Origin: an uncultured Acidobacteriota bacterium
GTDB taxonomy: Bacteria > Acidobacteriota > Thermoanaerobaculia > Multivoradales > UBA5704
Length of the DNA: 64,000 nt
Assembly: GCA_963795735.1 (NCBI GenBank)
Contig: CAWCIU010000008.1
Location: 1,751,836-1,815,835, forward strand
Direction: 5' to 3'
The notes under the pieces were generated by a model. The model ran no database searches. It was given only the letters and a program-made list of their open reading frames with translations, and was not told the origin of the DNA. The translations under genes were made by a program, and so were the position numbers. The first letter of the stretch is position 1; each line of letters opens with the position of its first letter. Positions 1 to 47,400 of the stretch are shown here, one piece after another.

Positions 1-1
1 C

Positions 2-355
2 GTCCTCTCCCGCCGGTCGATCGACTCCCGGCTGGACAAGATCAACAACGTCGAGCACCGGCAGACCCTCTGGGGAAGGCTCTTCCACTATGGCGACGTC
101 GAGATCGACACCGCCAGCGAGCGGGGCGAGACCGTGTTCCCCAACATCTCCCATCCGCTGGAATTCAAGAACGCCATCCTGGCGGCGGCGGAGCAGTATC
201 GTTCCGCGGGCGCCGGGAACCGCATGCCGCTCGCCGCGCCCGCCGGCCCTTCCGGCGCCGAGCGGCTGCGCCAGCTCAAGACCCTGCTCGACGACGGCCT
301 TATCTCCCCGGAGGAGTTCGAGGCCAAGCGCCGGGAGCTGCTGGCCCAGTTGTAG
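2..355 (+). CDS. PH-domain (bPH_2/YdbT-like) protein with C-terminal SHOCT domain, 5'-truncated at window edge
   Basis: Frame 2 is open from position 2. It reads ...RLDKINNVEHRQTLWGRLFHYGDVEIDTASERGETVFPNISHPLEFKNAILAAAEQ, typical of bacterial PH domain proteins. It ends with SHOCT-like DDGLISPEEFEAKRRELLAQL. Confidence 0.5.
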   Translation, partial: VLSRRSIDSRLDKINNVEHRQTLWGRLFHYGDVEIDTASERGETVFPNISHPLEFKNAILAAAEQYRSAGAGNRMPLAAPAGPSGAERLRQLKTLLDDGLISPEEFEAKRRELLAQL

Positions 356-409
356 GGGCCGGTTGCGGGGGGCGGCCCGGGTCGGACGGCGTGCTACCAT
401 CAGGCGGTA

Positions 410-3400
410 ATGCCCCGTAATGCCTTGGCCCCCGTCGTCTTCCCTCCCGGCTCCACCCTCGGTCCCCTGCTCGAGGAGCTGCGCCTGGACGCCCGGCTCG
501 GCCCGCAGCTCCTCTACTCCACGCACCTGCCCGGCAGCGAGGCGCGGTACGGCGAGCTCGATCCGCCGCTCCCGGAGCCGCTCTCCCGCGCCTTGGGCCG
601 CGGGCTGGGCCATGGAAGCTCGCCGCGCCTGTGGACTCACCAGACGGAGGGGATCGCGGCCGTGCGGCGGGGAGAAAACGTGCTGGTCACCACCCCCACG
701 GCCTCCGGCAAGTCGCTGGTCTTCCAGGTCCCTCCCCTGGAGGAGGCGGTCCGCGGGGGACCGGGGCATGGCCTGTTCCTCTTCCCGCTCAAGGCGCTGG
801 GGCAGGACCAGCGGGGGAAGTTCCTCCGCCTGGCCGCGGAGGCGGGGATCCCGCCGGAGGCCGCCGGGTGCGAGATCTACGACGGCGACACCCCGGCCTC
901 GAAGCGCACCTCGATCCGCAAGAATTTTCCCCGGGTGGTGATCTCCAATCCGGACATGCTCCACCTGGGCGTCCTCGGCCACTGGACGGGGTGGGGGCCG
1001 TTCCTGGCCGACCTGCGCTGGGTGGTGCTCGACGAGCTCCACACCTACCGCGGGATCTTCGGCAGCCACTTCCACCACGTCCTCCAGCGCTTCTTCCGGC
1101 TCTGCCGCTCGGTGGGATCGGACCCGGTGCTGATCGCCTCCTCGGCCACCGCGGCCAACGCCGGGGAGTTCGCCGAGACCCTCACCGGGCGCAAGTTCCA
1201 CTGGATCTCCCAGTCGGGCGCCCCGCGCGAGGACCGCCACCTGCTGCTCTTCCAGCCGGAGGCGAGCCCGTACACCACCGCGCTGCAGCTCTTCGTGCGC
1301 TTCATCAACGCCGGGCTCAAAACGATCGTCTTCACCAAGGCCCGGCGGATCACCGAGCTGCTCTACTCCTGGCTGCGGCGGCAGGAGCCGGCCCTCGCCG
1401 CGCGGGTGGCGAGCTATCGCGCCGGCTTCCTCGCCGAGGAGCGGCGGCGGATCGAGGCCGCCCTCTTCGAGGGGAAGCTCGACGGCGTCATCTCCACCTC
1501 GGCCCTGGAGATGGGGATCGACGTCGGCGGCCTCGACGCCTGCATCCTGGTGGGCTACCCGGGGAGCATGATGGCCACCTGGCAGCGCTCGGGCCGGGTG
1601 GGGCGGGCGGGCCGCGAGTCGATCACCGCCATGGTGGCGATGCCCGACGCCCTCGACCAGTACTTCCTCGATCATCCCGGGCAGTTCCTCGAGCGCCCCT
1701 GCGAGCGGCTGATCGTCGATCCGGTCAACGATCCGGTGTCGCGGGCGCACCTGGTCTGCGCCGCCTCCGAGATGCCGCTCTGCGGCGACGACCGCGCCTA
1801 CCTGGCGCCGCACCAGGCCCGGGTGGAGAAGCTGCTGCGCCAGGGGCACCTGCTCGCCGCCGCCGAGGGGGACGAGATCTTCTCCCTGCGCCGCCGGCCG
1901 CAGCGCCACGTCAACTTGCGGGGGACGGGGGAGACCTTCGCCATCCTCGCCGGCGGCCGGACGATCGGCACGGTGGACGGCGTGCGGGTGCTCCACGAGT
2001 GCCACCCCGGGGCGGTCTACCTCCACGCCGGGCGGCAGTTCCTGGTCGAGGCGCTGGAGCGCGAGGAGCGGCGGGTGCTGGCCGCGGCGGCGGATCTCGA
2101 CTATTTCACCACCCCGCTGACCGAGAAGGAGACCGAGATCCTGGAGGTGCTGGAGGAGAGGAGCGAGGGGCCGCTCCAGGCCTGGCTGGGCCGCCTCAAG
2201 GTCACCGAAAGGGTGGTCGGCTTCGAGCGCAAGCGCATCCACGGTCAGGAGGTGATCGACCAGACGCCGCTCGACCTGCCGCCGGTCGAGTTCGAGACGG
2301 TGGGCCTCTGGTGGGCGGCGCCGCGGGCGGCGGAGGAGACCCTGCGCCGCCGGGGGGAGCACTTCCTGGGCTCCCTCCACGCCTCGGAGCACGCCGGCAT
2401 CTCGCTCTTCCCCATCCTGGCCCTCTGCGACCGCGGCGACATCGGCGGCATCTCCTACCCCCTCCATCCGCAGCTCGGCACCGGCGCCGTCTTCATCTAC
2501 GACGGCCATCCCGGAGGGGTGGGGATCGCCGCCCGCGGCTTCGAGGACCTCGCCGACCTGCTGGGGCGGATCGAGGCGCTGATCGCCGGCTGCCCCTGCG
2601 AGACCGGCTGCCCCTCCTGCGTGCAGTCCCCCAAGTGCGGCAACGGCAACCGGCCGCTCGACAAGCCGGGCGCGGCCCGGGTGCTGCGGCTGCTGCTCGG
2701 GCGGGAGGAGCCGGCGGTGGCGTGGGGGGAGGCGGTGCGGGTGAGTCTGGTGGTGGCGGAGGAGGCGGAGCCTCTCCCGGACCCTCACCCCCTGGCCCCC
2801 TCTCCCGTCCCCTCCCACCCTCCCTCGCCGGGAGAGGGGGAAACGGAAGGCTCTCTCGCAGTCGAGAATCTCCCCGGCCAGCGCCACGCCAGCCTGCGGA
2901 GCGCCCCTGCCACCTCGTTCGAGCCCCTCCAGATCGGGTCGGCTCTCCTGCCGTCGTCTCCATTCCCCCTCGCCCGGGGAGGGAGGGCGGGAGGGGACGG
3001 GAGAGGGGGTCAGGGGGTGAGGGTCCGGGAGGGAGAGCCGCGCACGATCCTCTTCGACCTCGAGACCCTGCGCTCCGCCGCCGACGTGGGGGGCTGGCAC
3101 AAGGCCCACCGCATGGGGATCGCCGTCGGGGTGGTCTGCCATCTGGAGGAGGGGCGCTTCGAGGTATATCCCGAGCTCCGGGTGCGCGACCTGGTGGAGG
3201 CCCTGCGCGGCGCCTCCCTGGTGATCGGCTACAACATCAAGCGCTTCGACTACCTGGTCCTCTCCGGCTACACGGGGGAGGACTTCTCGCGCACCCTGCC
3301 GACGCTCGACCTTCTGGAAGACGTCGCCTCCCGCCTGGGCTTCCGGGTGGGCATGGGCCACCTCGCCCAGGAGACGCTGGGGATCGGGAAGTCCGCCGAC

Positions 3401-3574
3401 GGCCTCCAGTCCCTCGAATGGGTCCGCCAGGGGCGGCTCGACCTGGTGGAGGCGTACTGCCGCAAGGACGTCGAGATCCTGCGCGACCTCTATCTGCACG
3501 GCCGGCGCGAGGGGCATCTCTTCTACCGGGACCGCAACCGGGACGTGCGGCTGAAGCTAGGCGTGGAGTGGTAG
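410..3574 (+). CDS. DEXH-box helicase with DUF1998/MZB zinc-binding domain (MrfA/YprA-like) fused to a C-terminal DEDD 3'-5' exonuclease domain (MrfB-like)
   Basis: Walker A TPTASGKSL, DEXH motif VLDELHTYRG, helicase C-domain. A 4-Cys cluster CPCETGCPSCVQSPKCGNG matches DUF1998. After a Pro/Gly-rich linker, the exonuclease motifs are FDLETL (Exo I), GYNIKRFDY (Exo II) and YCRKDVEIL (Exo III). Confidence 0.8.
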   Translation: MPRNALAPVVFPPGSTLGPLLEELRLDARLGPQLLYSTHLPGSEARYGELDPPLPEPLSRALGRGLGHGSSPRLWTHQTEGIAAVRRGENVLVTTPTASGKSLVFQVPPLEEAVRGGPGHGLFLFPLKALGQDQRGKFLRLAAEAGIPPEAAGCEIYDGDTPASKRTSIRKNFPRVVISNPDMLHLGVLGHWTGWGPFLADLRWVVLDELHTYRGIFGSHFHHVLQRFFRLCRSVGSDPVLIASSATAANAGEFAETLTGRKFHWISQSGAPREDRHLLLFQPEASPYTTALQLFVRFINAGLKTIVFTKARRITELLYSWLRRQEPALAARVASYRAGFLAEERRRIEAALFEGKLDGVISTSALEMGIDVGGLDACILVGYPGSMMATWQRSGRVGRAGRESITAMVAMPDALDQYFLDHPGQFLERPCERLIVDPVNDPVSRAHLVCAASEMPLCGDDRAYLAPHQARVEKLLRQGHLLAAAEGDEIFSLRRRPQRHVNLRGTGETFAILAGGRTIGTVDGVRVLHECHPGAVYLHAGRQFLVEALEREERRVLAAAADLDYFTTPLTEKETEILEVLEERSEGPLQAWLGRLKVTERVVGFERKRIHGQEVIDQTPLDLPPVEFETVGLWWAAPRAAEETLRRRGEHFLGSLHASEHAGISLFPILALCDRGDIGGISYPLHPQLGTGAVFIYDGHPGGVGIAARGFEDLADLLGRIEALIAGCPCETGCPSCVQSPKCGNGNRPLDKPGAARVLRLLLGREEPAVAWGEAVRVSLVVAEEAEPLPDPHPLAPSPVPSHPPSPGEGETEGSLAVENLPGQRHASLRSAPATSFEPLQIGSALLPSSPFPLARGGRAGGDGRGGQGVRVREGEPRTILFDLETLRSAADVGGWHKAHRMGIAVGVVCHLEEGRFEVYPELRVRDLVEALRGASLVIGYNIKRFDYLVLSGYTGEDFSRTLPTLDLLEDVASRLGFRVGMGHLAQETLGIGKSADGLQSLEWVRQGRLDLVEAYCRKDVEILRDLYLHGRREGHLFYRDRNRDVRLKLGVEW
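2782..3024. repeat. In-frame inverted pair of MITE/RPE-like repeat units inside the helicase ORF (units ~2782-2848 and ~2961-3024)
   Basis: The units match the dispersed family (ccctcacc...ctctcccgtcccctccc...gccgggagagggg and its reverse complement gggagggcgggaggggacgggagagg...ggtgaggg). They translate to the low-complexity linker PLPDPHPLAPSPVPSHPPSPGEGE...PLARGGRAGGDGRGGQG. Confidence 0.7.
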
Positions 3575-3602
3575 GGTGGAAGGGTCTGGAAAGGAGCCGC
3601 TC

Positions 3603-4097
3603 ATGACTCATCTCACCCGATTCTTCCTCGCGGCCGCCCTTCTCACCCTGGCGGGCTGCTCGGGCCTCGGCACCCTCGCCCGCATGGAGCAGCCGCGCGT
3701 GGACGTCACCGGCCTCAAGCTGGCGGGCACGACCCTCAGCGGCGCCGACGTGCTCGTGCAGTTCCAGGTGGACAACCCCAACGACGTGGACCTGGTGCTC
3801 GACGGCATCGGCTACAAGCTGCGCCTCAACGGCCAACCCCTGCTCGACGGCCGGTACGACCAGCGCACGCGGATCGCCGCCAGCGGCCGCACCGCCGTCG
3901 AGCTGCCGGTGACGATCCGGTTCGACGATCTCCTGCGGGTCATCCGCACCCTCGGCGACCACAAGAATCCCAATTACGATCTCGAGGCCGACCTCCGGTT
4001 CGCCGTCCCCGTCCTCGGCGAGGTCACGGTGCCGGTGACGCAGACGGGGAAGGTCCCGGTGGACCGGCTCATGCAGCAGATCGGGATCGGACGGTAG
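3603..4097 (+). CDS. LEA14-like / WHy (LEA_2) domain lipoprotein
   Basis: RBS ggaaaggag lies before the ATG at 3603. Lipobox LTLAGCSG is present. VDVTGLKL...LVQFQVDNPNDVDLVLDGIGYKLRLNG is typical of Water-stress/Hypersensitive-response domain proteins. Confidence 0.6.
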   Translation: MTHLTRFFLAAALLTLAGCSGLGTLARMEQPRVDVTGLKLAGTTLSGADVLVQFQVDNPNDVDLVLDGIGYKLRLNGQPLLDGRYDQRTRIAASGRTAVELPVTIRFDDLLRVIRTLGDHKNPNYDLEADLRFAVPVLGEVTVPVTQTGKVPVDRLMQQIGIGR

Positions 4098-4156
4098 GGG
4101 AGCAACCCCGGCGTCCTTCCTCCGTATACTCTCCAGCGCTCAACAGGAGAATCCCC

Positions 4157-6232
4157 ATGCGGAGCCCCCGCCCGTCCCTCGTTTCCGCGATTTCCGTGAT
4201 CCTCCTCGGCCTGTCCCTGGCCGCCTGCCAGACGGCGCCGCCGAAGCCTCCGGCTTCACCGGCCTCGCCGGTATCGCGCGCCGCCGCCGGGCCGGGGGAG
4301 ATCCGCTACGGCTTTCTCTTCTCCGGCAATCCGGCGGGCTCCGCCTCCTCCCGCGTCGAGCCGGACGGCACCCGGGTGGAGACCTTTGAGTTCAACGATC
4401 GCGGGCGGGGCTCCAACACCACCAGCCGCTACCGGCTCGACGACAGGGGGCTGCCGGCGTCCGTCAAGACGACCGGCGTCGACTACTGGAAGACCCCGGT
4501 TTCGGAGCGGTTCGAGCGGACGGGTAGCCATGCCTCCTGGAAGAGCGCGGCGGAGAAGGGGGAGCGCGACGTCCGCGAGCCGGCCTTCTTCCTCAGCCTG
4601 AACGGTCCCCCCCAGGAGAGCGCGCTGCTAGCCAAGGCGCTGCTCGCGGCGCCGGGCCACCGCCTCCCGCTCCTGCCGACCGGGGAGGCCCGGCTCGAGG
4701 AGGTCACCTCGCTGCCGGTCCAGGCCGCCGGGCGCTCCCAGACCGTCCACCTCTACTCGCTCGCCGGCCTCGGCTTCACCCCCGGCTATCTCTGGCTCGA
4801 CGAGAGCCGGGATCTCTTCGCCAGCGTCAGCGGCTGGGGAGCCCTCTTCCGCGAGGGCTGGGTGGACGCCGTCCCGCAGCTCACCCACGCCCAGGATACG
4901 GCCGAGAAGGCGCGGTTCAAGGAGGCCGCCGCCCGGCTCGCCCATCACCCCCAGGGGGGCGGGCTCGCCATCCGTCACGCCCGGCTCTTCGATCCGGCGA
5001 CCGGGGCGTACCGGCCGGACACCACCGTGCTCGTTGCCGGCAACCGCATCCAGGCCGTCGGCCCGGACGCCGAGGTGACCGTGCCCCCCGGCGTCGAGGT
5101 GGTGGACGCCCGCGGCAAGGCCCTTCTGCCGGGCCTGTGGGACATGCACGTCCACCTCGGCGAGGAGCAGGGCCTCTTCAACCTCGCCTCCGGCGTGACC
5201 AGCGTGCGCGATCTCGCCAACGACGTCGACCAGCTCATCGACATGCGCCGGCGCTGGGATTCGGGCGAGGGGATCGGCCCCCGCGTGCTGATGGCCGGCT
5301 TCCTCGACGGCCCCGGCCCCTACGCGGGTCCCACCAAGGCGCTGGTCTCCACCGAGGCGCAGGCTCTGGAGTGGGTGGACCGCTACGCCAAGCTCGGCTA
5401 CGTGCAGATCAAGCTCTACAGCTCGCTCGATCCCAAGCTGGTGCCGCCAATCGTCAAGCGCGCCCACGAGCTGGGGCTGCGGGTCTCCGGCCACATCCCC
5501 AACGGGATGAGCGCCGAGCAGGCGGTGCGCGCGGGGTACGACGAGATCCAGCACGTGAACTTCCTGGTCCTCAACTTCCTCGACCCGAAGATCGACACCC
5601 GCACCCCGGCCCGCTTCTCCGAGGTGGCCAGGCACGCCGCCGAGCTGGACCTCCACTCCGAGCGGGTGAAGGATTTCATCGCCCTGCTCAAGGCGCGCGG
5701 CACCGTTTCCGATCCCACCCTCAACGCCTTCGAGGGGATGTTCAAGGCCCAACCCGGCGAGGTGGACCCCAGCCTCGCCGCGGTGGCGGACCGCCTGCCC
5801 CCCCAGGTGCAGCGCGGCCTCTACAATGCCGGCCTCAACCCGCCGGCCGACCAGGTGCAGCGCTACCGCGACTCCTACCGCGCGATGCAGAACCTGGTGA
5901 AGTCCCTCTACGACGCCGGGGTGACGATCGTCGCCGGCACCGATGCCATGGCGGGCTTCACCCTCCACCGCGAGCTGGAGCTCTACGTGGATTCGGGGAT
6001 TCCCGCCCCCGAGGCGCTGCGCATCGCCACCCTGGGCGCGGCGCGGGTCATGAAGCGGGACCGGGACCTCGGCTCGGTCGCCCCGGGCAAGCTGGCCGAC
6101 CTGATCCTGGTGGACGGCGATCCCGCGGCGCGCATCTCGGACATCCGCCGCGTGGTCCTCACCGTCAAGGACGGCGTGGTCTACGACCCCGCGGCCCTCT
6201 GGCGCGAGGTCGGGGTCAAACCGGTGGAATGA
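4157..6232 (+). CDS. amidohydrolase family protein (secreted/lipoprotein, N-terminal extra domain)
   Basis: Signal/lipobox LGLSLAAC. Metal-binding motif PGLWDMHVHL. The C-terminus AGTDA...LILVDGDP is typical of the amidohydrolase superfamily. Confidence 0.8.
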   Translation: MRSPRPSLVSAISVILLGLSLAACQTAPPKPPASPASPVSRAAAGPGEIRYGFLFSGNPAGSASSRVEPDGTRVETFEFNDRGRGSNTTSRYRLDDRGLPASVKTTGVDYWKTPVSERFERTGSHASWKSAAEKGERDVREPAFFLSLNGPPQESALLAKALLAAPGHRLPLLPTGEARLEEVTSLPVQAAGRSQTVHLYSLAGLGFTPGYLWLDESRDLFASVSGWGALFREGWVDAVPQLTHAQDTAEKARFKEAAARLAHHPQGGGLAIRHARLFDPATGAYRPDTTVLVAGNRIQAVGPDAEVTVPPGVEVVDARGKALLPGLWDMHVHLGEEQGLFNLASGVTSVRDLANDVDQLIDMRRRWDSGEGIGPRVLMAGFLDGPGPYAGPTKALVSTEAQALEWVDRYAKLGYVQIKLYSSLDPKLVPPIVKRAHELGLRVSGHIPNGMSAEQAVRAGYDEIQHVNFLVLNFLDPKIDTRTPARFSEVARHAAELDLHSERVKDFIALLKARGTVSDPTLNAFEGMFKAQPGEVDPSLAAVADRLPPQVQRGLYNAGLNPPADQVQRYRDSYRAMQNLVKSLYDAGVTIVAGTDAMAGFTLHRELELYVDSGIPAPEALRIATLGAARVMKRDRDLGSVAPGKLADLILVDGDPAARISDIRRVVLTVKDGVVYDPAALWREVGVKPVE

Positions 6233-6321
6233 CGCCCGTTTTGTTGTAACATTCGCGTCACATTGATGGTTGTTTCTGCCCGCCCCTAAGGTGGGTTTCG
6301 TCATTCTCGGGGGGAAAATCC

Positions 6322-8349
6322 ATGCGGAGAGCGTGTCTTTTCACGCTGGGGCTCCTGGTCTGTTCCGGGCTCGGGGCCGCGGCGGCTGCGGCATCGCCGC
6401 CCCTGTTCCGGCCGGGCGAGGAGCTTCGCTATACCGTCTTCTTCGGCAATCTGCGGCCGGTGGGGCTGGCGACCTTTCTCGTCGAGCCGGCCGGCGACAG
6501 CGTCCTCACCCTGAAGGTGAGCGACCGCGGGCGCGGTGAGAGCTTCAACTCGCGGCTCCGCCTCGACGCCGACGGCATTCCGCTGCGGGAGCACCTCACG
6601 GGCGTCGACTACTGGCAGAACCCGGTCGACGAACGGCTCGAGATCGCCGGCGGCCGGGCCACCTGGAGCGGCGGGCCGGAGAAGGGCGAGAAGAAGATCG
6701 CTCATCCCGCCTTCTACGTCACCCGCGGCGGCCTCAGCCTGGAGGCCGGCCTGCTGGCGATGGCCCTGCTGCACAACCCCCACCATCGCCTGCCGCTGCT
6801 GCCGGAAGGGGAGGGGCGCCTCGAGAAGGTCGGCGCGGCGCGGATCGCGGGCGGGGGAAAGGCGCGCGACCTCTCGCTCTTCCTCCTCACCGGCCTCGCC
6901 TCGCCGCTCTACGTCTGGATGGACGGCGACGGCGTCTTCTTCGGCCGCTACGACGGTTTCATCACCTCCGTCCCGCAGGGGTGGGAGGAGGCGGCGCCGG
7001 CGATGATCCAGGCGCAGACCCGGGCCGTGGCGTCGCGGTGGAAGGCCGTCGCGGCAAAGCTCGCCCACCGCCCGTCCGGAGCGCTGGCGGTGACCGGGGC
7101 CCGGCTGTTCGACCCGGAAGCCGGCACGGTGACGCCCGGCGTCACCGTCGTCGTCTCCGGCAACCGCATCCAGGCCGTCGGCCGGGACGGCGAGGTCCCG
7201 GTGCCCACCGGGGCCAAGGTGGTCGAGGCCCACGGCCGCATGCTGCTGCCGGGCCTCTGGGACATGCACCAGCACCTCACCGACAACGACGGCCTCCTCG
7301 ACCTGGCCGCCGGCGTGACCACCGGCCGTGACATGGCCAACGACATGGACTACCTGCTCGACCTCAAGCGCAGGTGGGACTCCGGCGAGGCCCTGGGGCC
7401 GCGGGTGGTGCTGGCCGGCGTCATCGACGGTCCGGGCCTGTACGCCAGCCCCACCAAGATGCTGGTAGAGACCGAGGAGAAGGCGCGCGCCACGGTGGAC
7501 CGCTACGCCGGGATGGGCTACGCGCAGATCAAGATCTACAGCTCGCTCGACCCCAAGCTGGTCCCCGCGATCGTCGCCGAGGCCCACCAGCGCGGCCTGC
7601 GGGTCTCCGGCCACATCCCGTACGGGATGACGGCCGCGGACGCGGTCCGCGACGGGTTCGACGAGCTCCAGCACGTCAACTTCCTCTTCCTCAACTTCCT
7701 CCCCGGGGTCGACACCCGCACGATGGCCCGGATGACCGCCGTCGCCGAGCACGCCGCGGAGATCGATCTCGCCTCCGAGCCGGTGCGGGCCTTCCTGCGG
7801 CTGCTCAAGGAGCGGCACACGGTGGTGGACCCCACCCTCAATATCTACGAGGACCTGTTCACCGCCCGCCCGGAGGAGGTGCGCCCGAGCTTGGCGCCGG
7901 TGGGGGAGCGGCTGCCCTACCAGTTGCGCCGCACCCTGCTCGGGGGGAGTCTGGCGATTCCGCCGGGCCAGGAGCAGCGCTACCGCGACTCCTACCGCGC
8001 CTGCGTCGCCATGGTGCGCCTCCTGCACGACGAGGGCATCCCGATCGTCGCCGGCACCGACTCCGCCGCCGGCTTCGACCTCCACCGCGAGCTCGAGCTC
8101 TACGTCGCCGCGGGCCTGCCGGCCCCCGAGGTGCTGCGCCTCGCCACCCTGGGAGCCGCCCGCATCATGAAGCTCGACCGCGACCTCGGCACCATCGCCC
8201 CCGGCAAGCTCGCCGACCTGATCCTGGTGGACGGCGATCCCACCAGGAGCATCAGCGACATCCGGCGCGTGGTCCTCACCATCAAGGACGGCGTGATCTA
8301 CGACCCCGCGGAGCTGTACCGGTCGGTCGGGGTGAAGCCGGCGGTGTGA
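6322..8349 (+). CDS. amidohydrolase family protein, tandem paralog of the upstream gene
   Basis: Same architecture and motifs as 4157..6232 (PGLWDMHQHL, VAGTDSAAGF, LILVDGDPTRS). A signal peptide is present. Confidence 0.8.
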   Translation: MRRACLFTLGLLVCSGLGAAAAAASPPLFRPGEELRYTVFFGNLRPVGLATFLVEPAGDSVLTLKVSDRGRGESFNSRLRLDADGIPLREHLTGVDYWQNPVDERLEIAGGRATWSGGPEKGEKKIAHPAFYVTRGGLSLEAGLLAMALLHNPHHRLPLLPEGEGRLEKVGAARIAGGGKARDLSLFLLTGLASPLYVWMDGDGVFFGRYDGFITSVPQGWEEAAPAMIQAQTRAVASRWKAVAAKLAHRPSGALAVTGARLFDPEAGTVTPGVTVVVSGNRIQAVGRDGEVPVPTGAKVVEAHGRMLLPGLWDMHQHLTDNDGLLDLAAGVTTGRDMANDMDYLLDLKRRWDSGEALGPRVVLAGVIDGPGLYASPTKMLVETEEKARATVDRYAGMGYAQIKIYSSLDPKLVPAIVAEAHQRGLRVSGHIPYGMTAADAVRDGFDELQHVNFLFLNFLPGVDTRTMARMTAVAEHAAEIDLASEPVRAFLRLLKERHTVVDPTLNIYEDLFTARPEEVRPSLAPVGERLPYQLRRTLLGGSLAIPPGQEQRYRDSYRACVAMVRLLHDEGIPIVAGTDSAAGFDLHRELELYVAAGLPAPEVLRLATLGAARIMKLDRDLGTIAPGKLADLILVDGDPTRSISDIRRVVLTIKDGVIYDPAELYRSVGVKPAV

Positions 8350-39527: not shown

Positions 39528-41597
39528 TTGCACATCTTCATGACTTCACGCCAGTCAACATCTAGTCTCCAGAGCCGAGAGATACTGCTTCTTGAGGATA
39601 ACTCCGGGGCGTCGGAGAGGCGACATCAGGTCGGCGTCTCTCGTCAAATCGTTCACTCTACCATTACCATCAGGGTGCACCGAATAAGCGGTACATCTTC
39701 GCAACTAGCTGCGAGCAGGACCTACAAAGTCGGAACCTTATCCGGCGAGCGCAATGGGCGCATCCAACTCGCTATGCGTCTCCTTGATCGGGCTAAGCCT
39801 AAGAAGGGCTGCGTCGTCGCAGCTGGGACATCCTATGGCTCTGCGGCGACCTTTTTGAGGGCGCTGTCCAATATTGGTCTGTCCTTCGTTGTTCAGGTGA
39901 GGCCCAGCACATTGCTTGACGTGCTCGGAACGAAGGCTAAACTAAGCACGGCCGGGGAGCTACTGGCTGGAGGCCAATGGGAGGCGGTGACGTTGCCACT
40001 GCTGGACGGGACAAAAGTGGACTATGTAGCTGCTAAGCTGGCAGATGTCGACCTAACCATAGGTCCCGCCAAGCTCTTTGCCGCTCGTGTCGGTGGTGTA
40101 GAGGGCGCTCAGCGGAGTACGATCATCGGCCTCTCTTCCTTTGACGCGAGCATAAGTGAGCTTGTACAGATCATCGGCTACACACGATGGATAAGGCCGA
40201 TCTCCCGGAGACAGGACAGAGCGGCACGGGGGGTAGCCGGACGTGCGGAGCCAGAAGGTAATGCAGCAACTCTGAGAGCCCGCGCCAATATCACATCAGC
40301 TCGCCAGCAGGATGATCGTGCCAGAGAGGGGAATATGTACGTCCTCGGGTACTCCCCAAGAGGAGTTCTGCAATCCTGTGGGTCAACTCTTAACGTCGCA
40401 GAGTTGTTTGCGGGCGCCGGTGGTATGGGGCTTGGCTTTCTCTTGGCAACCGGAGGAGAGGGACGCTACCGTCTCGTATATTCCGGAGAAGTGAATCCAA
40501 TCTACGTCCAGACGCTTCGAACGAACCATGAAGCATTACCGGGCGTCGTGGGCGGAGCCGGTGAAGCGCTTATTCCCGAGTATACGGAGGCGGCGGATCT
40601 GCGACGAGAGGAAACCCTGGCTAGCGTCAAAGAGGTCGGGTGCCAAAAGGGTGGCATTCACGTGCTCATTGGTGGCCCCCCATGCCAAGGATTTTCCATG
40701 GCTAATCGCAATTCTTGGCACGGTCGCAACCCGCACAATCGCCTCGTGGATGTATTTTTTAAATACGTCGAAGAGCTCCGCCCAAAAGTCTTCCTAATGG
40801 AGAACGTGCAGGGGATCCTCTGGACTCCTAAGGGAGGTAGGCCGGTCTCGGTTGTTGACGTCATAGAACGTCGTATGCGAGCGGCAGGCTACATAGTATT
40901 TCCAAAGCTACTCGACGCAGTATGGTATGGCGTGCCTCAGCATAGGACTCGCTTCTTTCTAATGGGACTCCACCGTGATCTTGGATATCGCTCCGACAGC
41001 TTTGGAGAATGGGGGCCGTTTCCTGTTCCGACGCATGGCGGAGAGTCCTCGCCGTGGGTAACGACAAGGGAAGCACTTGCCGATCTTCCCCGCATAGGCA
41101 ATGGTGCGTCGGTGGAGGATCTCGCCTATATTGACCCTTCGCCTGCTGCGCTAAAACAGAATCCATTCCTCAATTACATCAGGGATGGGGCTGAGCGTGG
41201 TTTGGTCTTTGACCACGTAACCTCTAGGCATGCTGAATATGTAATCGACCGCTATCGTAAAATACCGCCTGGCGGTAATTGGGAAAGCATCCGCGAAGAA
41301 CTATCTAACTACGCCGATGTTTCGCGCACCCACAGCAATATTTACCGTCGCCTGCGATGGGACGAACCATCTATTACGATTGGACATTATCGCAAGAGTA
41401 TGCTCGTGCACCCTAGTCAGCATCGAGGTCTCTCCCTTCGCGAGGCGGCGCGGCTGCAATCGTTTCCCGATTGGTTTCACTTCGCGGGAACAGTAAGCGG
41501 GCGTGATGGAGGAATTGTTCATAAACAACAGCAACTCGCTAATGCTGTCTGCCCGCTGGTAACGAAAGCTGTTGCAGAGTTCATCCTGCATCTATGA
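39528..41597 (+). CDS. DNA (cytosine-5)-methyltransferase with ~280-aa N-terminal extension of unknown function; DruM-like
   Basis: Motif I AELFAGAGGMGLGF, motif IV PPCQGFSMANR, ENV motif FLMENVQG, later QSFPDWFHF. Lower GC than flanking DNA. Confidence 0.8.
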   Translation: MHIFMTSRQSTSSLQSREILLLEDNSGASERRHQVGVSRQIVHSTITIRVHRISGTSSQLAASRTYKVGTLSGERNGRIQLAMRLLDRAKPKKGCVVAAGTSYGSAATFLRALSNIGLSFVVQVRPSTLLDVLGTKAKLSTAGELLAGGQWEAVTLPLLDGTKVDYVAAKLADVDLTIGPAKLFAARVGGVEGAQRSTIIGLSSFDASISELVQIIGYTRWIRPISRRQDRAARGVAGRAEPEGNAATLRARANITSARQQDDRAREGNMYVLGYSPRGVLQSCGSTLNVAELFAGAGGMGLGFLLATGGEGRYRLVYSGEVNPIYVQTLRTNHEALPGVVGGAGEALIPEYTEAADLRREETLASVKEVGCQKGGIHVLIGGPPCQGFSMANRNSWHGRNPHNRLVDVFFKYVEELRPKVFLMENVQGILWTPKGGRPVSVVDVIERRMRAAGYIVFPKLLDAVWYGVPQHRTRFFLMGLHRDLGYRSDSFGEWGPFPVPTHGGESSPWVTTREALADLPRIGNGASVEDLAYIDPSPAALKQNPFLNYIRDGAERGLVFDHVTSRHAEYVIDRYRKIPPGGNWESIREELSNYADVSRTHSNIYRRLRWDEPSITIGHYRKSMLVHPSQHRGLSLREAARLQSFPDWFHFAGTVSGRDGGIVHKQQQLANAVCPLVTKAVAEFILHL

Positions 41598-41598
41598 C

Positions 41599-43596
41599 AT
41601 GAGCTCCTTCGAAAGGTATACCCTCTGGAACTATATGTTGGCGGAGCAATGCCTGCTAACGGGTTCTAATCAAGGCGCTGTACTGCTCACGGTAACGCCG
41701 CGGATCCTCGCTGCTGCGTTGGATGAGGCTAAAGAAGGATTGCAATCACCTGAGGAGGCTGAGGCGGACTTCGTTACAGCTGTAACATTTGTTTATAAGG
41801 AACATGTGCTGCGAAGGCCAGAAAGGTTGCGAGCTTTAAAGTCGTCGGATAAGACAGAGGTTCCCTTAAGTGTCGGGTTCCTCGCTCTTTCCGTTCTCGC
41901 TGCCTACCGTATGCGTACTGATGGTGAGCGCACAGGACGGGCCTATTATGCGAGGCTTGGCGAGATGGTCGGCTGTGGGCTAGTTGGTAATTTTCCCCTA
42001 GGGTTTGATCCAGATGCATTCGTGGAATTATGGGATGAGCTGGCGCAATGGCTCGAAACTCAGTACGGCCGACGGCTTGTCCTTCCTGTGGCTGGGGGTG
42101 TGCAAAAGTTCGTAGCCTACCCTCTTGCACATGTTCCATTGCGACGAGTGGACATTGATCGACTACCGCAGTTCTTTGATTCCTACGGTTACGAGCCAGG
42201 GATGCGCGCTCCGTTGGATTCGCTTGCCTACGATCTCTATAAAGGAGCCGGTCCTTGGCGACATCTAACGAGAGTAGGTCAACGTGCTCTGGAAGATCCG
42301 GGCCGTCGTCCTTTCGTGATTCGGCAAGTCGCCCATGAACTCGAGCACTGGGATGGCTGTCGAACTGACTCATACGGCACGCGGATAGCCACCATCGCAT
42401 TGTGGATGGACATCCGTCGACGGCGGGTTCAACTCTCCTTGCTCGCCAGACGGCCCCAGGGCTTTCCTGAAGAAATTGAGAATGAAGATCTTGTTTTTGT
42501 TTCAAGCCAAGAGGGATGGTACGAGCCAATCCTGCTCGGGCCCGATGACGGTGCTCTTCTCAGTGAGGGTCTTCGAATAGACGCCTGTGCATCCGGCAGT
42601 CGCTGTCTTCTCCAGCTTCGTGGATTCACTGTCGTTCCGTTAACGCCCTCTGAAGAGTATGCGGGTCTTGTTTCGGATTCCGTCCTGCGCGCGGGCACGC
42701 GATGTGCGGTGCTCTGTGCGGAATCGATGATTGAGGATGTTTCTCGATACCTTGAGTTGCTGAACAACGGGCCCGTTTATCCTCGCCGCGATGAGAACCT
42801 ACCTAAAGGCTGGTGCCTGTTCACCGATGTCGAGCTGTCTTCCGATGCCGCTCCGCCGGTTGGCCTCGAGCGTCTCCGGGCCGAGGCCAGTATTGCTCTG
42901 GTCCCTGTGGGAGGGCTGCGCCTCGGGCGTCGTTGGACTTGGCTGGAAGGTGCATCTGCGTGCCTCAGGATCGTCGGCGCTCGTCAAGGGCTAGAAGTAC
43001 GCGTCGATGGGCAAGAGGCGAAACTGGACAGCGAAGGACATCTGCCTGCCGCTCTCTTGAGGGCCGAAGGAACGCATGTTGTTGAGGTCGGTAACCGGTT
43101 GAGACAACTGATCGCTGTACTACCTGGCGCCGTGAATCCGGAGTGCAGGTCTTGGGAATGCAACGAGCCAATTCTCAGCCGGATTCCCGTAGCAGTACCT
43201 GAGGGACATTGGGCTGTTATTGGGTCCGTACCTGGCGAACTCGCAACCGTATTTGCGTCTTCCGAAGGTGCGCTCATCCGGCCAGACTTCTTTGCCCGGT
43301 GGGCAGTGAAGATAGGTACTCGTCGTAGTGCAACCGCGCTTCATCTCCATGACGTGGGTGCCTCTTTAATGGCCGAGTGGGATAGGGATGACGTAACAAG
43401 GATTCAAGCCCCGTGTTTACGCGCGGGGTTTACTTCGGCTCAGTCGTGGGCGGAAATAATCTATCAGGCCGGAATTCGCAGACCGCATCTCGTGTGTACA
43501 TTAAAGTGCCAAGTCCAGGAGCTTGCAGCTGAATGGCGACGCTTAATGGAGAAGGCACGCTCTGTGAAGCGGGAGATAAAGAGGGGGCGCCGGTGA
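41599..43596 (+). CDS. hypothetical protein (665 aa), DruF-like position in Druantia type II-like operon
   Basis: The ATG lies 2 nt after the MTase stop. No recognisable motifs. Confidence 0.5.
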   Translation: MSSFERYTLWNYMLAEQCLLTGSNQGAVLLTVTPRILAAALDEAKEGLQSPEEAEADFVTAVTFVYKEHVLRRPERLRALKSSDKTEVPLSVGFLALSVLAAYRMRTDGERTGRAYYARLGEMVGCGLVGNFPLGFDPDAFVELWDELAQWLETQYGRRLVLPVAGGVQKFVAYPLAHVPLRRVDIDRLPQFFDSYGYEPGMRAPLDSLAYDLYKGAGPWRHLTRVGQRALEDPGRRPFVIRQVAHELEHWDGCRTDSYGTRIATIALWMDIRRRRVQLSLLARRPQGFPEEIENEDLVFVSSQEGWYEPILLGPDDGALLSEGLRIDACASGSRCLLQLRGFTVVPLTPSEEYAGLVSDSVLRAGTRCAVLCAESMIEDVSRYLELLNNGPVYPRRDENLPKGWCLFTDVELSSDAAPPVGLERLRAEASIALVPVGGLRLGRRWTWLEGASACLRIVGARQGLEVRVDGQEAKLDSEGHLPAALLRAEGTHVVEVGNRLRQLIAVLPGAVNPECRSWECNEPILSRIPVAVPEGHWAVIGSVPGELATVFASSEGALIRPDFFARWAVKIGTRRSATALHLHDVGASLMAEWDRDDVTRIQAPCLRAGFTSAQSWAEIIYQAGIRRPHLVCTLKCQVQELAAEWRRLMEKARSVKREIKRGRR

Positions 43597-44489
43597 AGTG
43601 GGACTTGCTGCTTGAGTGGATGACACACATGGGCTCGGGCCACTGGGGTGCATTCCGCGAGGCCGTGGCGGAGCTTGCCGACCCCGATGATCCTGAGATG
43701 CCGGTGCTGGCCCAGAAGCTTCGTATTGCTCTTTCGGACCTTGGCCACGTGGATTTTTTCGTTGATGGGCCCCGACGCTGGCAGGTACTGCGGCCGGCCT
43801 TAGTTGGCTTGGCTGGTAGCAACGCGCACCTGTTCGTAGGCGGTCGTACCCGGCATCTTGCCGAGAAGTTGACATCGAGCCTGCTGGAAGGTGGAGCGTC
43901 GGTATCCATCACAAAAATCAATCCCGGGCTTGCACGTATCTGCCTGGAGGGCCCACAAGAGATTCTGCGCGCGACCGCCAAAGACCTCGGGCTTGAATAT
44001 GTGCCTGTAGCCTCAGCTCTGCTTGCTTCCCGACTTCTGCCGCTGCGGCATACGATCGAGTGGGCTCCTGCTCGTCCAGAGCCGATCAACTGGGCCGTAC
44101 GATCGTGGTCGTTTGAGAGCAAAGCGTGGATTCATGGCAGGTTCGCGCGTACTGCACTAGAGTACACTAACCGGCATGGGGCAAGTAGATACATGATCGA
44201 TCTTGGCCATGCCGGCCTTCGGGACTTCAACAAGCGCGTATCCATTTACGGGGCGGCTTTTTTGAAGGGTAGGCGGATTATCCGCTACTGCTTCGAGAGA
44301 GAACGCCTTCTGGTACCCCGTTGGGCTCCACTCCCGGAGCCTTATTCCCGTGTGGCGTGCTTGGCTGGCGGGCAACTCGCCACCGTTCAGGAAGATGATC
44401 TTGTCTTTGAATCCGTCACCCCCAATATAGCGTCGATGCTCTTGATTGCACTAGGACAGGGGTATCCAAAGCACGGAGATGTTTTATGA
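43593..44489 (+). CDS. hypothetical protein (~298 aa), DruG-like position
   Basis: GTG start overlapping the upstream stop (GTGA) with RBS agaggggg. The stop overlaps the next ATG (ATGA). Confidence 0.5.
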   Translation: MKWDLLLEWMTHMGSGHWGAFREAVAELADPDDPEMPVLAQKLRIALSDLGHVDFFVDGPRRWQVLRPALVGLAGSNAHLFVGGRTRHLAEKLTSSLLEGGASVSITKINPGLARICLEGPQEILRATAKDLGLEYVPVASALLASRLLPLRHTIEWAPARPEPINWAVRSWSFESKAWIHGRFARTALEYTNRHGASRYMIDLGHAGLRDFNKRVSIYGAAFLKGRRIIRYCFERERLLVPRWAPLPEPYSRVACLAGGQLATVQEDDLVFESVTPNIASMLLIALGQGYPKHGDVL

Positions 44490-47400
44490 ATGATCCATTT
44501 TTTACATTCCACCAGCTTCGGGAGACCTACCTTCGGTATCTGGACAGCCCTTTTCGCCTCAGGTATAAGGCACTGATGGAGGAGCGTCGCACTCTCCTTG
44601 ATCGGGATCGACAGCTCTACCGAGAACCTCTCTTTGAGCCAGTCGTGCCGTATGAGTCATCGAAATTGACCATGCGAGGTGCGTGTTCGCATCTCGGGGT
44701 TTCATCTGATGTCGCAGAGTATCTGGATACCGGTGGCCTCTTTCCGTCGAGTCGCGAACTCTTCCAGCATCAATTGGATGCTTGGGAATCTTCGCGCAAG
44801 GGTGATGCCGTGATCGTGACGACGGGTACAGGGTCCGGGAAGACGGAGTGCTATCTGCTCCCAGTGTTCGCCTACCTCGTTGAGGAATCGACAAGATGGG
44901 GTGCGCCATCGGCACGCTCGCCTCACTATCTCTGGTGGTCTCACCCACGGCAGCAACGTATCCCGCAGCGTGCCCACGACACTGGTCGAGCTAAGGCTCT
45001 TCGCGCACTTTTTTTGTACCCGCTTAATGCGCTTATCGAGGATCAGCTAGGGCGGATACGCACGGCTTGTGATGGTCCCAATGGACGGCGGTGGCTGACG
45101 AACTGCCGGGCCGGAAACCGTTTTTGGTTCGGGCGCTATACGGGTGCCACGCCTGTTTCGGGGCCCCAAACCAACGCTAAGCGACAAGAGTTGAAGCGGC
45201 GCCTGCAAGACATAGAAGATGAGTGGGATCGTGCCCGACTTTCCGCTGCCCGATCCGGTAACGATGACATTCTCTCCTATTTCCAAGACCCTGATGGAGC
45301 GGAAATGTGGTCTCGCTGGGATATGCAGGAGGATCCGCCGGACATTCTCATCACTAACTATAGCATGCTTAACATTATGTTAATGAGGAGCCTGGAGAGT
45401 GACGTATTCGACCAGACGAAGGCGTGGCTCGCGCAGGATCGCGACAGGAATGTGTTTCACCTCGTTGTGGATGAGCTCCATACCTATCGAGGCACACCCG
45501 GAACTGAAGTAGGCTATCTGCTTCGCGCATTGCTGCACCGCCTCGGCCTAACTCCGGACTCGCCGCAGCTTCGAATTATTGCGACAAGTGCTTCGATTGA
45601 TGCAAATGATCCAGGAAGTACCGAATATTTGGAGGAATTTTTTGGGAGAGACCCATTGACCTTCAAGATCATCGAAGGGAAGCGGACTGCCTTCTCAAGC
45701 GGAAGCGGCACGCGAAGTGCTCAGCCCTTCGTTGTCTTCGGACAGGGGCTCGAGGAAGGAACTCTCGCTACTGCCGTCGCACGCCTCGCGGCTGATACAG
45801 GTGTTATACCGCGAGAGTCGAGTCCCGAGCGTCGGCTGGCCGAGGTACTCAGCACCACCGGTGTTATGGAGCTGGTGCGTTGCGAAGGAGAGCAGGGACC
45901 ATTTACGAGCACGCGCCTTGGAGAGTCCCTCTTCGGGACAGATCCCGATGCAGGGGTAGCTACCCATGCCATAATTAGGGGGCTGATCCTCGCGCGGGAG
46001 GTACGGGGTGGGTTAGAAGTCGCTCCTCTTCCCCTCAGAGTACATTACTTTTTTCATAATGCTGGGCGGCTTTGGGTCTGCGTTAATCCACAGTGCTCTG
46101 GACGTACAGGGACCACGTCACCGGGTGCCGAGGTGCCTCCGGTTGGTAGACTCTATGTTGAGCCGCGGCCGCGCTGCGAAAACTGTAATGCCCGCGTACT
46201 CGAGCTTCTATATTGTCAGCCGTGTGGAGAGGTTTTTGTTGGTGGCTATCGTGCCGAAGATTGCAACATCAATAATGCATGGTTTCTATCGCCTGACTTT
46301 CCCGACCTGGAGCATGTCCCAGACCGGTCGACCTCACCAAAGAGGATTCACATTGAGTACCTTGTTTTCTGGCCCGCAAACGGGCGACCATTGGTGCGCA
46401 GTAATCATGCGGGCCCATCTTGGGGGTGGCAGCAAGACGGGCAGGCAGGCTATCAGTGGCGCCCGGCCTCGCTCGACATGGTGGAAGGCCGCCTCTCTCT
46501 AAGCCCGCCCCGGCGCTCCACTAGCCCATCCGAGATAGCAGGTTATGCCTTCATTGCTCCTTTGGCTCATGCCGATGCTTTTCCTGCAAAGTGTCCCCAC
46601 TGTGCGGCAAACTGGGGCAGGCGCCTTGGTGTTAAGTCTCCGATCCGAGATCTCGGATCTGGTTTTCAACGCATCATGCAGATTCTCGGCGACGCACTCG
46701 TACGTGAGATTCCTGAAGGACCGGGCCGGAAGCTGGTTCTTTTCTCAGATTCCCGACTTGATGCAGCGAAGCTCTCAACGGGGATCAAGCTCGCACATTA
46801 CAGGGATACTCTCCGCCAGATCGCATTTGAGACTCTTGGTACGGCGGGCACTGCGGCAAAGCGACTTCATCAGGAGAATCAGGAGATATCTCAGCAGGCG
46901 ATTGAGCTGTACGCCTTGCTACAGAAGCGGGAGGCGGAAGGCCTCTCCGACCGAGAGAATGCACGCCGGAAAGAGCTGATGAGCGCCCTTCCTGGAAGCA
47001 TCGTTGGGGATCTTACAAAGTACGCAGTGACAGGTGGAACTCCTCCCAATGTTCTCGTGCCTCCGGTGCCTCCTGGGGCTCTCATATTCATGCCCTTCCG
47101 ACAGCTCATCGATCTTGTACGTACGCAATTGTTCTCCAAGGGTATAAACCCGGGCGGCCCGTTGCCATCAGTCGCGACATACCAGCCTCAGCGAAGTGGA
47201 CCAAAAGCCTTGTGGACAAATCTTCTCGACTGGTCGACAGCTCAGCCAAACTATCAGGCCGGTCTGCAGCCTCTGGAGCGGAACCTTCAAGCGAGCATCG
47301 AGGTCTCTCTTCGCGAGAACGTTATATCCAGCGTTCTCTTTGCATCAGCGGCAAGAGACTTCGAGTCTCTGGGGCTCGGCTACTTGTGGACCAGCAACGT

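Follow-up and report, generated by a model that had tools for sequence, protein, structure and literature searches.

Background

In Bacillus subtilis the DNA repair helicase MrfA (YprA) and the exonuclease MrfB (YprB) form a two-protein machine, the biochemistry and epistasis of which have been described (10.1101/426304, PMC7797055, PMC11194089). The gene considered here lies near the start of a 64,000-nucleotide stretch of DNA from an uncultured Acidobacteriota bacterium (assembly GCA_963795735.1, contig CAWCIU010000008.1, positions 1,751,836 to 1,815,835 of the forward strand), referred to below as the window. It encodes in one polypeptide a helicase of the MrfA type, a low-complexity linker and a predicted 3'-5' exonuclease of the DEDD superfamily, and is likely to specify a single-chain counterpart of the MrfA-MrfB repair machine.

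Loss of function in the MrfAB pathway is marked by sensitivity specific to mitomycin C, independently of UvrABC. MrfB carries a long N-terminal extension ahead of strand beta1 and a C-terminal TPR domain, and the structural neighbours of its core are PolB, Pol epsilon and NrnC (PMC11194089). In Bacillus the contact with MrfA has been placed in the exonuclease core of MrfB by two-hybrid analysis, while the N-terminal tail of MrfB takes part in an AlphaFold-Multimer model only. Both papers treat the way in which the two proteins interact as unsettled (PMC7797055, PMC11194089).

Proteins in which the two activities are joined have been noticed before. Burby and Simmons mention MrfA-MrfB fusion proteins (10.1101/426304, legend of Fig. 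6A), and Bell et al. recognise a clade of YprA helicases 'fused to MrfB/YprB homologs' (10.1101/2025.09.15.676423). The protein described here belongs with these fusions, in which a YprA helicase of the repair branch is followed in the same chain by an MrfB-like exonuclease, and the architecture class is already on record. The two papers give the fusion no more than a mention; their accessible portions do not name Thermoanaerobaculia or refer to a DEDDy core, to the absence of the TPR domain and the N-terminal tail, or to a disordered linker of variable length, and the accessible part of the supplement of Bell et al. does not list the MrfB-fused clade. A similar logic, with a superfamily 2 (SF2) DNA helicase and a DnaQ/DEDD-type 3'-5' exonuclease in one chain, is found in WRN and in Staphylococcus aureus DinG (SaDinG; PMC12345164). 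In both of these the exonuclease is N-terminal and the helicase belongs to another family (RecQ, and the 5'-3' DinG/XPD family, respectively), and they are fusions independent of the MrfA-type one. WRN is among the PDB matches to the helicase core of the window protein.

Gene structure and coding frame

The gene is complete, from its ATG start to its stop codon (Table 1), and is confirmed as a real gene with helicase, linker and exonuclease in one polypeptide. A single open reading frame (ORF) of 1054 amino acids holding these parts, together with a DUF1998 domain, had been put forward in the original prediction, which was made from the letters of the window and a list of its ORFs; Pfam searches, homologues and an AlphaFold2 (AF2) model all bear it out. 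The same strand also contains a competing ORF of 991 amino acids in another frame (631..3606). The DNA here is 71% GC, a composition at which long spurious ORFs are common, and homology identifies the frame that starts at position 410 as the coding one: its homologues are full-length (1000-1140 amino acids) and 65-94% identical. The start codon is supported by M1 and R3, which are invariant among 50 homologues. The GC content around the gene (71-72%) equals that of the surrounding high-GC DNA. A scan for promoters and terminators over nucleotides 1-4300 found none, and no tRNA or Rfam element was found in the window.

The helicase region

Four domains of the helicase region, DEAD, Helicase_C, WHD_HRQ1 and MZB (PF09369, formerly DUF1998), pass the Pfam threshold in the fusion protein. 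The closest solved structure is that of B. subtilis YprA/MrfA (6znp, E=2.8e-126), with which residues 52-740 are collinear, and the HMMER alignment to it shows no large insertion in the fusion helicase relative to MrfA. The domain order is the one seen in MrfA (6znp/6znq/6zns), namely the N-terminal region, RecA1, RecA2, winged helix, OB-CON and MZB; the names OB-CON and 'canopy' follow PMC7797055. The motor motifs and zinc cysteines of MrfA are all kept. Motifs I (PTASGKS), II (DELH), III (SAT) and VI (QRSGRVGR) are invariant in 118 homologues, as are six cysteines of the MZB region (C673, C728, C730, C734, C737 and C743). In the AF2 model this region closes with a terminal helix at residues 752-762. 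The fusion protein differs from MrfA in the ~290 additional residues (linker and exonuclease) that follow MZB, and in its source, Acidobacteriota (Thermoanaerobaculia-like) as against Bacillota. Identity between the Bacillus MrfA and the window helicase is only 33% over ~730 residues.

The family model TIGR03817 (DECH_helic) aligns over its whole length (model positions 18-739 of 742) and scores 674.6 bits, below its curated cut-off of 874.1 bits, and by this measure the fusion helicase appears to be a relative of TIGR03817 and not a member of that equivalog. At ~760 residues (749 in MrfA), the helicase part is without the inserts of the ARMADA, BRIGADE, TALON and Druantia types (a BrxA-like domain and a zinc beta-barrel). 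Judged from sequence, the N-terminal 764 residues are a bona fide SF2 ATPase/helicase of the MrfA/YprA family, from its 'repair' branch. By analogy with MrfA and SftH, this part may be expected to act as a 3'-5' translocase and helicase on single-stranded DNA (ssDNA).

The exonuclease domain

The C-terminal domain begins at strand beta1 directly after the linker and ends with a beta-hairpin 34 residues past D1020. The motifs FDLETL, GYNIKRFDY and YCRKDVEIL, from which a complete DEDD 3'-5' exonuclease had been predicted, were found in the expected places when their coordinates were checked (Table 1). The catalytic residues that they carry (D883, E885, D947, Y1016 and D1020) are intact in the alignment and are conserved in at least 97% of sequences, both among 119 close homologues and among 135 divergent relatives. 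In the DEDD superfamily the four acidic residues lie on beta1, alphaB and alphaC of an RNase H-like fold, and a tyrosine or histidine that assists as general base precedes the last aspartate by 4-5 residues. The position of Y1016, four residues ahead of D1020, indicates the DEDDy type. The domain is exactly 176 residues long, without insertions or deletions, in essentially all of the ~119 close homologues. Mean identity to the query in this set is 81% for the exonuclease and 85% for the helicase, compared with 37% for the linker.

An AF2 model of the domain built from 49 sequences is confident, with a predicted local distance difference test score (pLDDT) of 96.2 and a predicted template modelling score (pTM) of 0.90. 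Its elements follow the order beta1-3/alphaA/beta4/alphaB/beta5/alphaC, then the C-terminal beta-hairpin. Foldseek matches the model at E~1e-6 to the proofreading domains of archaeal family-B polymerases and of the yeast Pol epsilon, T7 and RB69 polymerases, and also to phage exonucleases, the best being a phage protein of 214 amino acids (E=5.5e-12) and one being named 'YprB ribonuclease H-like'. In PHROGs the match is to phrog_403, 'DNA polymerase exonuclease subunit' (E=1.7e-10). A search of the PDB by sequence, with the C-terminal domain alone or with a 49-sequence profile, gave no significant match.

A domain search had been suggested as a check on the original prediction. For the helicase half its outcome is the one expected, while the C-terminal domain taken alone scores 17.4-21.5 bits against PF13482 (RNase_H_2, YprB-like), under the gathering threshold of 22. 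No other Pfam family matches the domain or its relatives better than PF13482, and many of the relatives, close and distant, do pass. The domain is therefore best classed, on its sequence, as a borderline and divergent member of PF13482. Its status as a DEDD exonuclease follows from the confident model with its Foldseek matches, from the relatives that pass PF13482 and from the conservation of the catalytic residues. Together these predict an intact 3'-5' exonuclease fold of the DEDDy (two-metal-ion) type, with a complete active site, under purifying selection.

Relatives of the domain also occur outside helicases. One stand-alone protein of 179 amino acids (P0369, 39% identical) is encoded by a gene that overlaps the start of a 1027-amino-acid RVT_1 reverse transcriptase gene by 13 nucleotides. 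This arrangement is present in two loci (L084, 574-4184; L085, 499-4109), and upstream of it in the first is a partial gene (2-547) that by eye appears to encode another exonuclease of the DEDD/PF13482 type (ILFLDVEDTG ... YNKNDCEAM). The compact exonuclease may here serve a reverse transcriptase-based module, either for defence or as a retroelement. Two further relatives (P0306 and P0317) are fused at the N-terminus to Siphovirus Gp157 (PF05565, 65-74 bits), which indicates that phages, too, employ this compact DEDDy module.

The linker

The linker between the two modules measures 114 residues by alignment boundaries (765-878) or 92 residues by pLDDT<50 (783-874), so that the earlier estimate of ~105 was a fair one. 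Its composition is biased (P18, G15, E13, A13 and S11 of 114). In the full-length AF2 model residues 783-874 have a pLDDT of 27-32 and are without secondary structure, and the model (pTM 0.56) confirms a disordered linker. Length varies from 41 to 179 residues among the ~119 close homologues, and the 37% identity given above refers to the columns that can be aligned. In many distant fusions the linker is only 24-50 residues long, and the long low-complexity form appears from these comparisons to be a lineage-specific expansion.

Comparison with MrfB

The B. subtilis MrfA sequence was partly rebuilt from the 6znp alignment and used to fetch 80 Bacillales loci. In each of the 80, mrfB is an ORF of its own downstream of mrfA, in agreement with the two adjacent genes that had been assumed for Bacillus. 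MrfB, a protein of 413 residues (UniProt P50837), scores 137.8 bits against PF13482. The window domain and MrfB (8UN9) have in common the PF13482 DEDD 3'-5' exonuclease core, a long alphaC helix typical of DEDDy enzymes, and a position immediately after MrfA in the encoded order. The structural neighbours of the window domain are also those published for the MrfB core.

The term 'MrfB-like' in the original prediction holds at the level of PF13482 and the DEDD superfamily and fails at a finer level. MrfB is a separate protein with an N-terminal extension of ~100 residues, a C-terminal TPR domain and a DEDDh active site (H258), whereas the window domain is a bare 176-residue core ending in a beta-hairpin, of the DEDDy type (Y1016) and covalently tethered. 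The DEDDh residues are invariant in the 80 Bacillales MrfBs, with histidine at the fifth position; tyrosine occupies this position in 132 of the 135 relatives of the window domain. Pfam finds no TPR domain in the fusion protein, and there is no extension like that of MrfB ahead of beta1.

Alignment of the window domain family with the 80-sequence MrfB family by hhalign is weak (P=0.007 with a shallow profile and 0.0013 with a deeper one). It spans the whole core, placing D883, E885, D947, Y1016 and D1020 one-to-one on MrfB D107, E109, D172, H258 and D262. A hidden Markov model (HMM) of the window domain ranks the MrfB ORFs first among 432 Bacillales ORFs, with only 11-14 bits. From these comparisons it is concluded that the exonuclease would work like MrfB and belongs to the same broad family (PF13482 / DEDD superfamily).

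Distribution and age of the fusion

The best 120 full-length matches are mostly labelled Thermoanaerobaculia or Acidobacteria. Except for contig fragments and one split call, the same architecture is present in all of them, and each of the ~119 close homologues has the fusion. More than 100 clusters of Thermoanaerobaculia were found to have it, and the uninterrupted form is seen in more than 100 independent clusters from several databases (NCBI, JGI, ENA and Logan). An exhaustive search with the exonuclease domain yielded 1617 representatives at 50% clustering. Many of these are proteins of 920-1180 amino acids with the domain at the extreme C-terminus, and the complete DEAD/Helicase_C/winged-helix/MZB set is present in all four of the long representatives scanned with Pfam. 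One distant fusion cluster is named Candidatus Aerophobetes.

A distant set of 46 long proteins, reduced to 35 by the removal of near-duplicates, is 38-61% identical to the window protein in the helicase and 38-68% identical in the exonuclease. The two identities co-vary (Pearson r=0.71, n=35). Linkers in these distant fusions are short (median 40 residues, shortest 24). Fusion at such helicase identities, with linkers down to 24 residues, indicates that the joining of the two modules is old and vertically maintained, and the fusion is not special to the window. The alignments likewise indicate that purifying selection has preserved the arrangement as a whole in Thermoanaerobaculia and in more distant lineages.

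Two expectations of the original prediction are altered by this distribution. The fusion had been implied to be novel, and it proves to be common in Thermoanaerobaculia and beyond. The linker had been treated as a special insertion, with an ancient fusion named as the outcome that would speak against this; an ancient fusion, in which distant relatives are joined through much shorter linkers, is what was found.

Proposed function and alternatives

The gene probably encodes a single-chain counterpart of MrfA and MrfB. By analogy with the B. subtilis pair, the helicase would load on ssDNA at a lesion or nick, translocate 3'-5' and unwind the damaged strand, and the tethered exonuclease would degrade the freed 3' end. 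The covalent linker would replace the non-covalent contact between MrfA and MrfB; the tail and the TPR domain of MrfB are both absent from the fusion protein. By appearance the gene is a housekeeping repair gene of the chromosome and not a component of a defence island.

Several observations weigh against this proposal. The sequence similarity of the exonuclease to MrfB is marginal and orthology is unproven: the reverse HMM search, from the MrfB family to the window domain, finds nothing, MrfB (8UN9) is missed by the PDB profile search even at E<=10, and it lies outside the Foldseek top 50. The MrfAB genes of P. aeruginosa fail to complement across species (10.1101/426304), and as distant homologues do not cross-complement, specificity for mitomycin cannot be assumed. 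The full-length AF2 model is uninformative on the docking of the two modules, and the literature holds no biochemistry or genetics for any fused member. Relatives of the exonuclease domain are found in phage and reverse transcriptase contexts, and defence systems make heavy use of the YprA family (DISARM, Dpd, Druantia, ARMADA and TALON; 10.1101/2025.09.15.676423).

The alternative that survives best, although it must be considered doubtful, is that the exonuclease was recruited independently. The domain would then come from a separate compact DEDDy family of ~176 residues, which also circulates on its own or in association with phages, and the protein would be analogous to MrfAB and not a fused mrfA-mrfB operon. 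The marginal and one-way profile similarity to MrfB agrees with this, as do the difference between DEDDy and the invariant DEDDh of the Bacillales proteins and the lack of the N-terminal extension and TPR domain. The family of 1617 representatives includes stand-alone proteins of ~180 residues as well as the Gp157 fusions and the reverse transcriptase-adjacent gene, and its structural match to the 214-residue phage protein and its phrog_403 match point in the same direction. A MrfA-type helicase adjoins none of the five stand-alone relatives examined, which represent four distinct genomic contexts; their neighbours are a reverse transcriptase, a phosphoribosyltransferase, an unrelated gene of 460 amino acids and an acylphosphatase, and one contig is too short to tell. 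Against recruitment, the best Pfam match is still PF13482, the family of MrfB itself, the window-domain HMM puts MrfB first among the Bacillales ORFs, and the catalytic motifs are in register across the whole core. The domain follows the helicase just as mrfB follows mrfA, Bell et al. group such proteins with 'MrfB/YprB homologs' (10.1101/2025.09.15.676423), and loss of the accessory regions together with a switch from histidine to tyrosine would be easy after fusion. A wider and equally tentative idea is that the compact family, with its C-terminal beta-hairpin, is a portable module for trimming 3' ends that was recruited separately by MrfA-type helicases, by phage Gp157 proteins and by the locus of the 1027-residue reverse transcriptase. 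If this were true, the Thermoanaerobaculia protein would be a convergent and naturally minimal helicase-exonuclease machine in which a disordered tether replaces the MrfA-MrfB docking interface.

It is improbable that the protein, instead of being a repair enzyme, acts in defence against phages or plasmids as do other YprA-family helicase-nuclease fusions (ARMADA, Druantia and TALON). Such a role would fit the central place of the YprA family in the defence systems listed above, several of which have C-terminal nuclease fusions, and also the partial matches in PADLOC, among them BrxHI (124 bits) over the helicase core and DruE over MZB, and the occurrence of exonuclease relatives with reverse transcriptase and phage proteins. 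However, the PADLOC matches cover only generic helicase cores, and the best match by far is MrfA, from end to end. TALON, ARMADA and Druantia proteins share with the window protein a YprA-family helicase and a C-terminal nuclease-fold domain, but they have BrxA-like and zinc beta-barrel inserts, inactive RNase H, Vsr or PLD folds and conserved defence operon partners, all of which are absent here. TALON ends in a true RNase H that has been inactivated (KOG3752), whereas the tail of the fusion is a DEDD exonuclease with its active site intact. The adjacent genes include no NERD, TPR-CSD, TBP, methylase or other defence gene. The GC content of the gene equals that of its surroundings, unlike the Druantia island elsewhere in the window (54-58%), and virtually every relative sampled has the gene, in neighbourhoods that vary, unlike the patchy distribution of defence genes. 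Membership in TALON, ARMADA or Druantia was rejected, given the lack of inserts, the intact DEDD tail and the non-defence neighbours.

That the ORF is an artefact, formed from two adjacent genes by a frameshift in the GC-rich linker during sequencing or assembly, is hardly credible: gene calls in some relatives do separate the helicase from the nuclease (P0205/L001, P0086/L002 and P0021/L003), but all three come from one ENA assembly series (ERZ25039606, ERZ25039550 and ERZ25039541, respectively), the fusion is uninterrupted in the independent clusters counted above, and distant fusions with linkers of 24-40 residues exist.

The three split cases were also considered as unfused intermediates and rejected. 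They are pseudogenes or assemblies with frameshifts: in L002 and L003 the frame changes several times inside the helicase, and in L001 it changes once, in the linker. This pattern suggests that indel-rich long-read assemblies fragment the gene calls and so mimic a 'split' architecture. A comparison of synteny had been proposed as a way to find relatives with separate helicase and exonuclease genes; the three apparent cases of this kind are not genuine intermediates.

Genomic neighbourhood

The neighbours of the fusion gene encode a SHOCT protein, a LEA_2 lipoprotein, two amidohydrolases and a PAP2-like protein. The SHOCT ORF (73 amino acids) ends 55 nucleotides upstream of the helicase start codon. 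Downstream, a single base separates the stop codon of the fusion from the next start, and the LEA_2 protein, a lipoprotein by eye, is encoded there together with two paralogous amidohydrolases of ~680 amino acids. The close relative L001 (7191-10418) has the same downstream order and L003 a part of it (LEA_2 and one amidohydrolase); it is absent in L002, where the neighbourhood differs. The shared order probably stems from the close relationship of these loci and not from a functional link, and no conserved partner genes were seen.

An island of low GC content (54-58%, compared with ~70%) at 39528-50020 on the forward strand contains a Druantia-type defence operon (Table 1). With DruE in this island and the fusion gene near its start, the window holds helicases of both the defence and the repair branch of the YprA family.

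Table 1. Coordinates, in nucleotides of the window, of the fusion gene, its parts and other features (aa, amino acid residues).
Feature	Coordinates	Strand	Evidence
SHOCT ORF, 73 aa	134-355	+	PF09851, 39 bits
Fusion gene, MrfA-type helicase / DEDDy exonuclease, 1054 aa, stop codon included	410..3574	+	ORF list, homologues, invariant M1/R3
RecA1 / DEAD, aa 77-249; motif I PTASGKS aa 96-102, motif II DELH aa 208-211	638..1156	+	PF00270, 76.5 bits
RecA2 / Helicase_C, aa 298-401; motif VI QRSGRVGR aa 392-399	1301..1612	+	PF00271, 54.9 bits
Winged helix, aa 436-506	1715..1927	+	PF22982 WHD_HRQ1, 36.8 bits; collinear with MrfA in 6znp alignment
Beta-rich region, aa ~509-650, putative OB-CON part of MrfA 'canopy'	1934..2359	+	6znp alignment; strands 509-637 in AF2 model
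MZB (formerly DUF1998), zinc-binding, Pfam aa 660-738, plus terminal helix to aa 764	2387..2701	+	PF09369, 69.2 bits
Linker, predicted disordered, low complexity, aa 765-878	2702..3043	+	Alignment boundaries; AF2 pLDDT
Compact DEDDy 3'-5' exonuclease (predicted), aa 879-1054	3044..3571	+	AF2, Foldseek, conservation
Motif TILFDLETL; D883 (3056-3058), E885 (3062-3064)	3044-3070	+	
Motif GYNIKRFDY; D947 (3248-3250)	3227-3253	+	
Motif YCRKDVEIL; Y1016 (3455-3457), D1020 (3467-3469)	3455-3481	+	
LEA_2 protein and two amidohydrolases	3576-8349	+	
C5 cytosine methylase, DruM/MTase_II-like	39528-41597	+	
DruF-like gene	41572-43596	+	
DruL4-like gene	43533-44489	+	
DruE, 1844 aa	44486-50020	+	PADLOC DruE4, 1803 bits; weak MZB match

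Implications

As a probable single-chain counterpart of MrfA and MrfB, the fusion protein does not reveal a new kind of system. A single-chain MrfA-exonuclease with a minimal nuclease core could be convenient for structural and single-molecule work on the coupling of unwinding to degradation, although its practical value is modest. For the family, the distribution of the fusion means that repair-branch YprA helicases of the Acidobacteriota and of other groups are routinely fused to their nuclease, and that the annotation 'DEAD/DEAH box helicase' conceals the nuclease half of these proteins.

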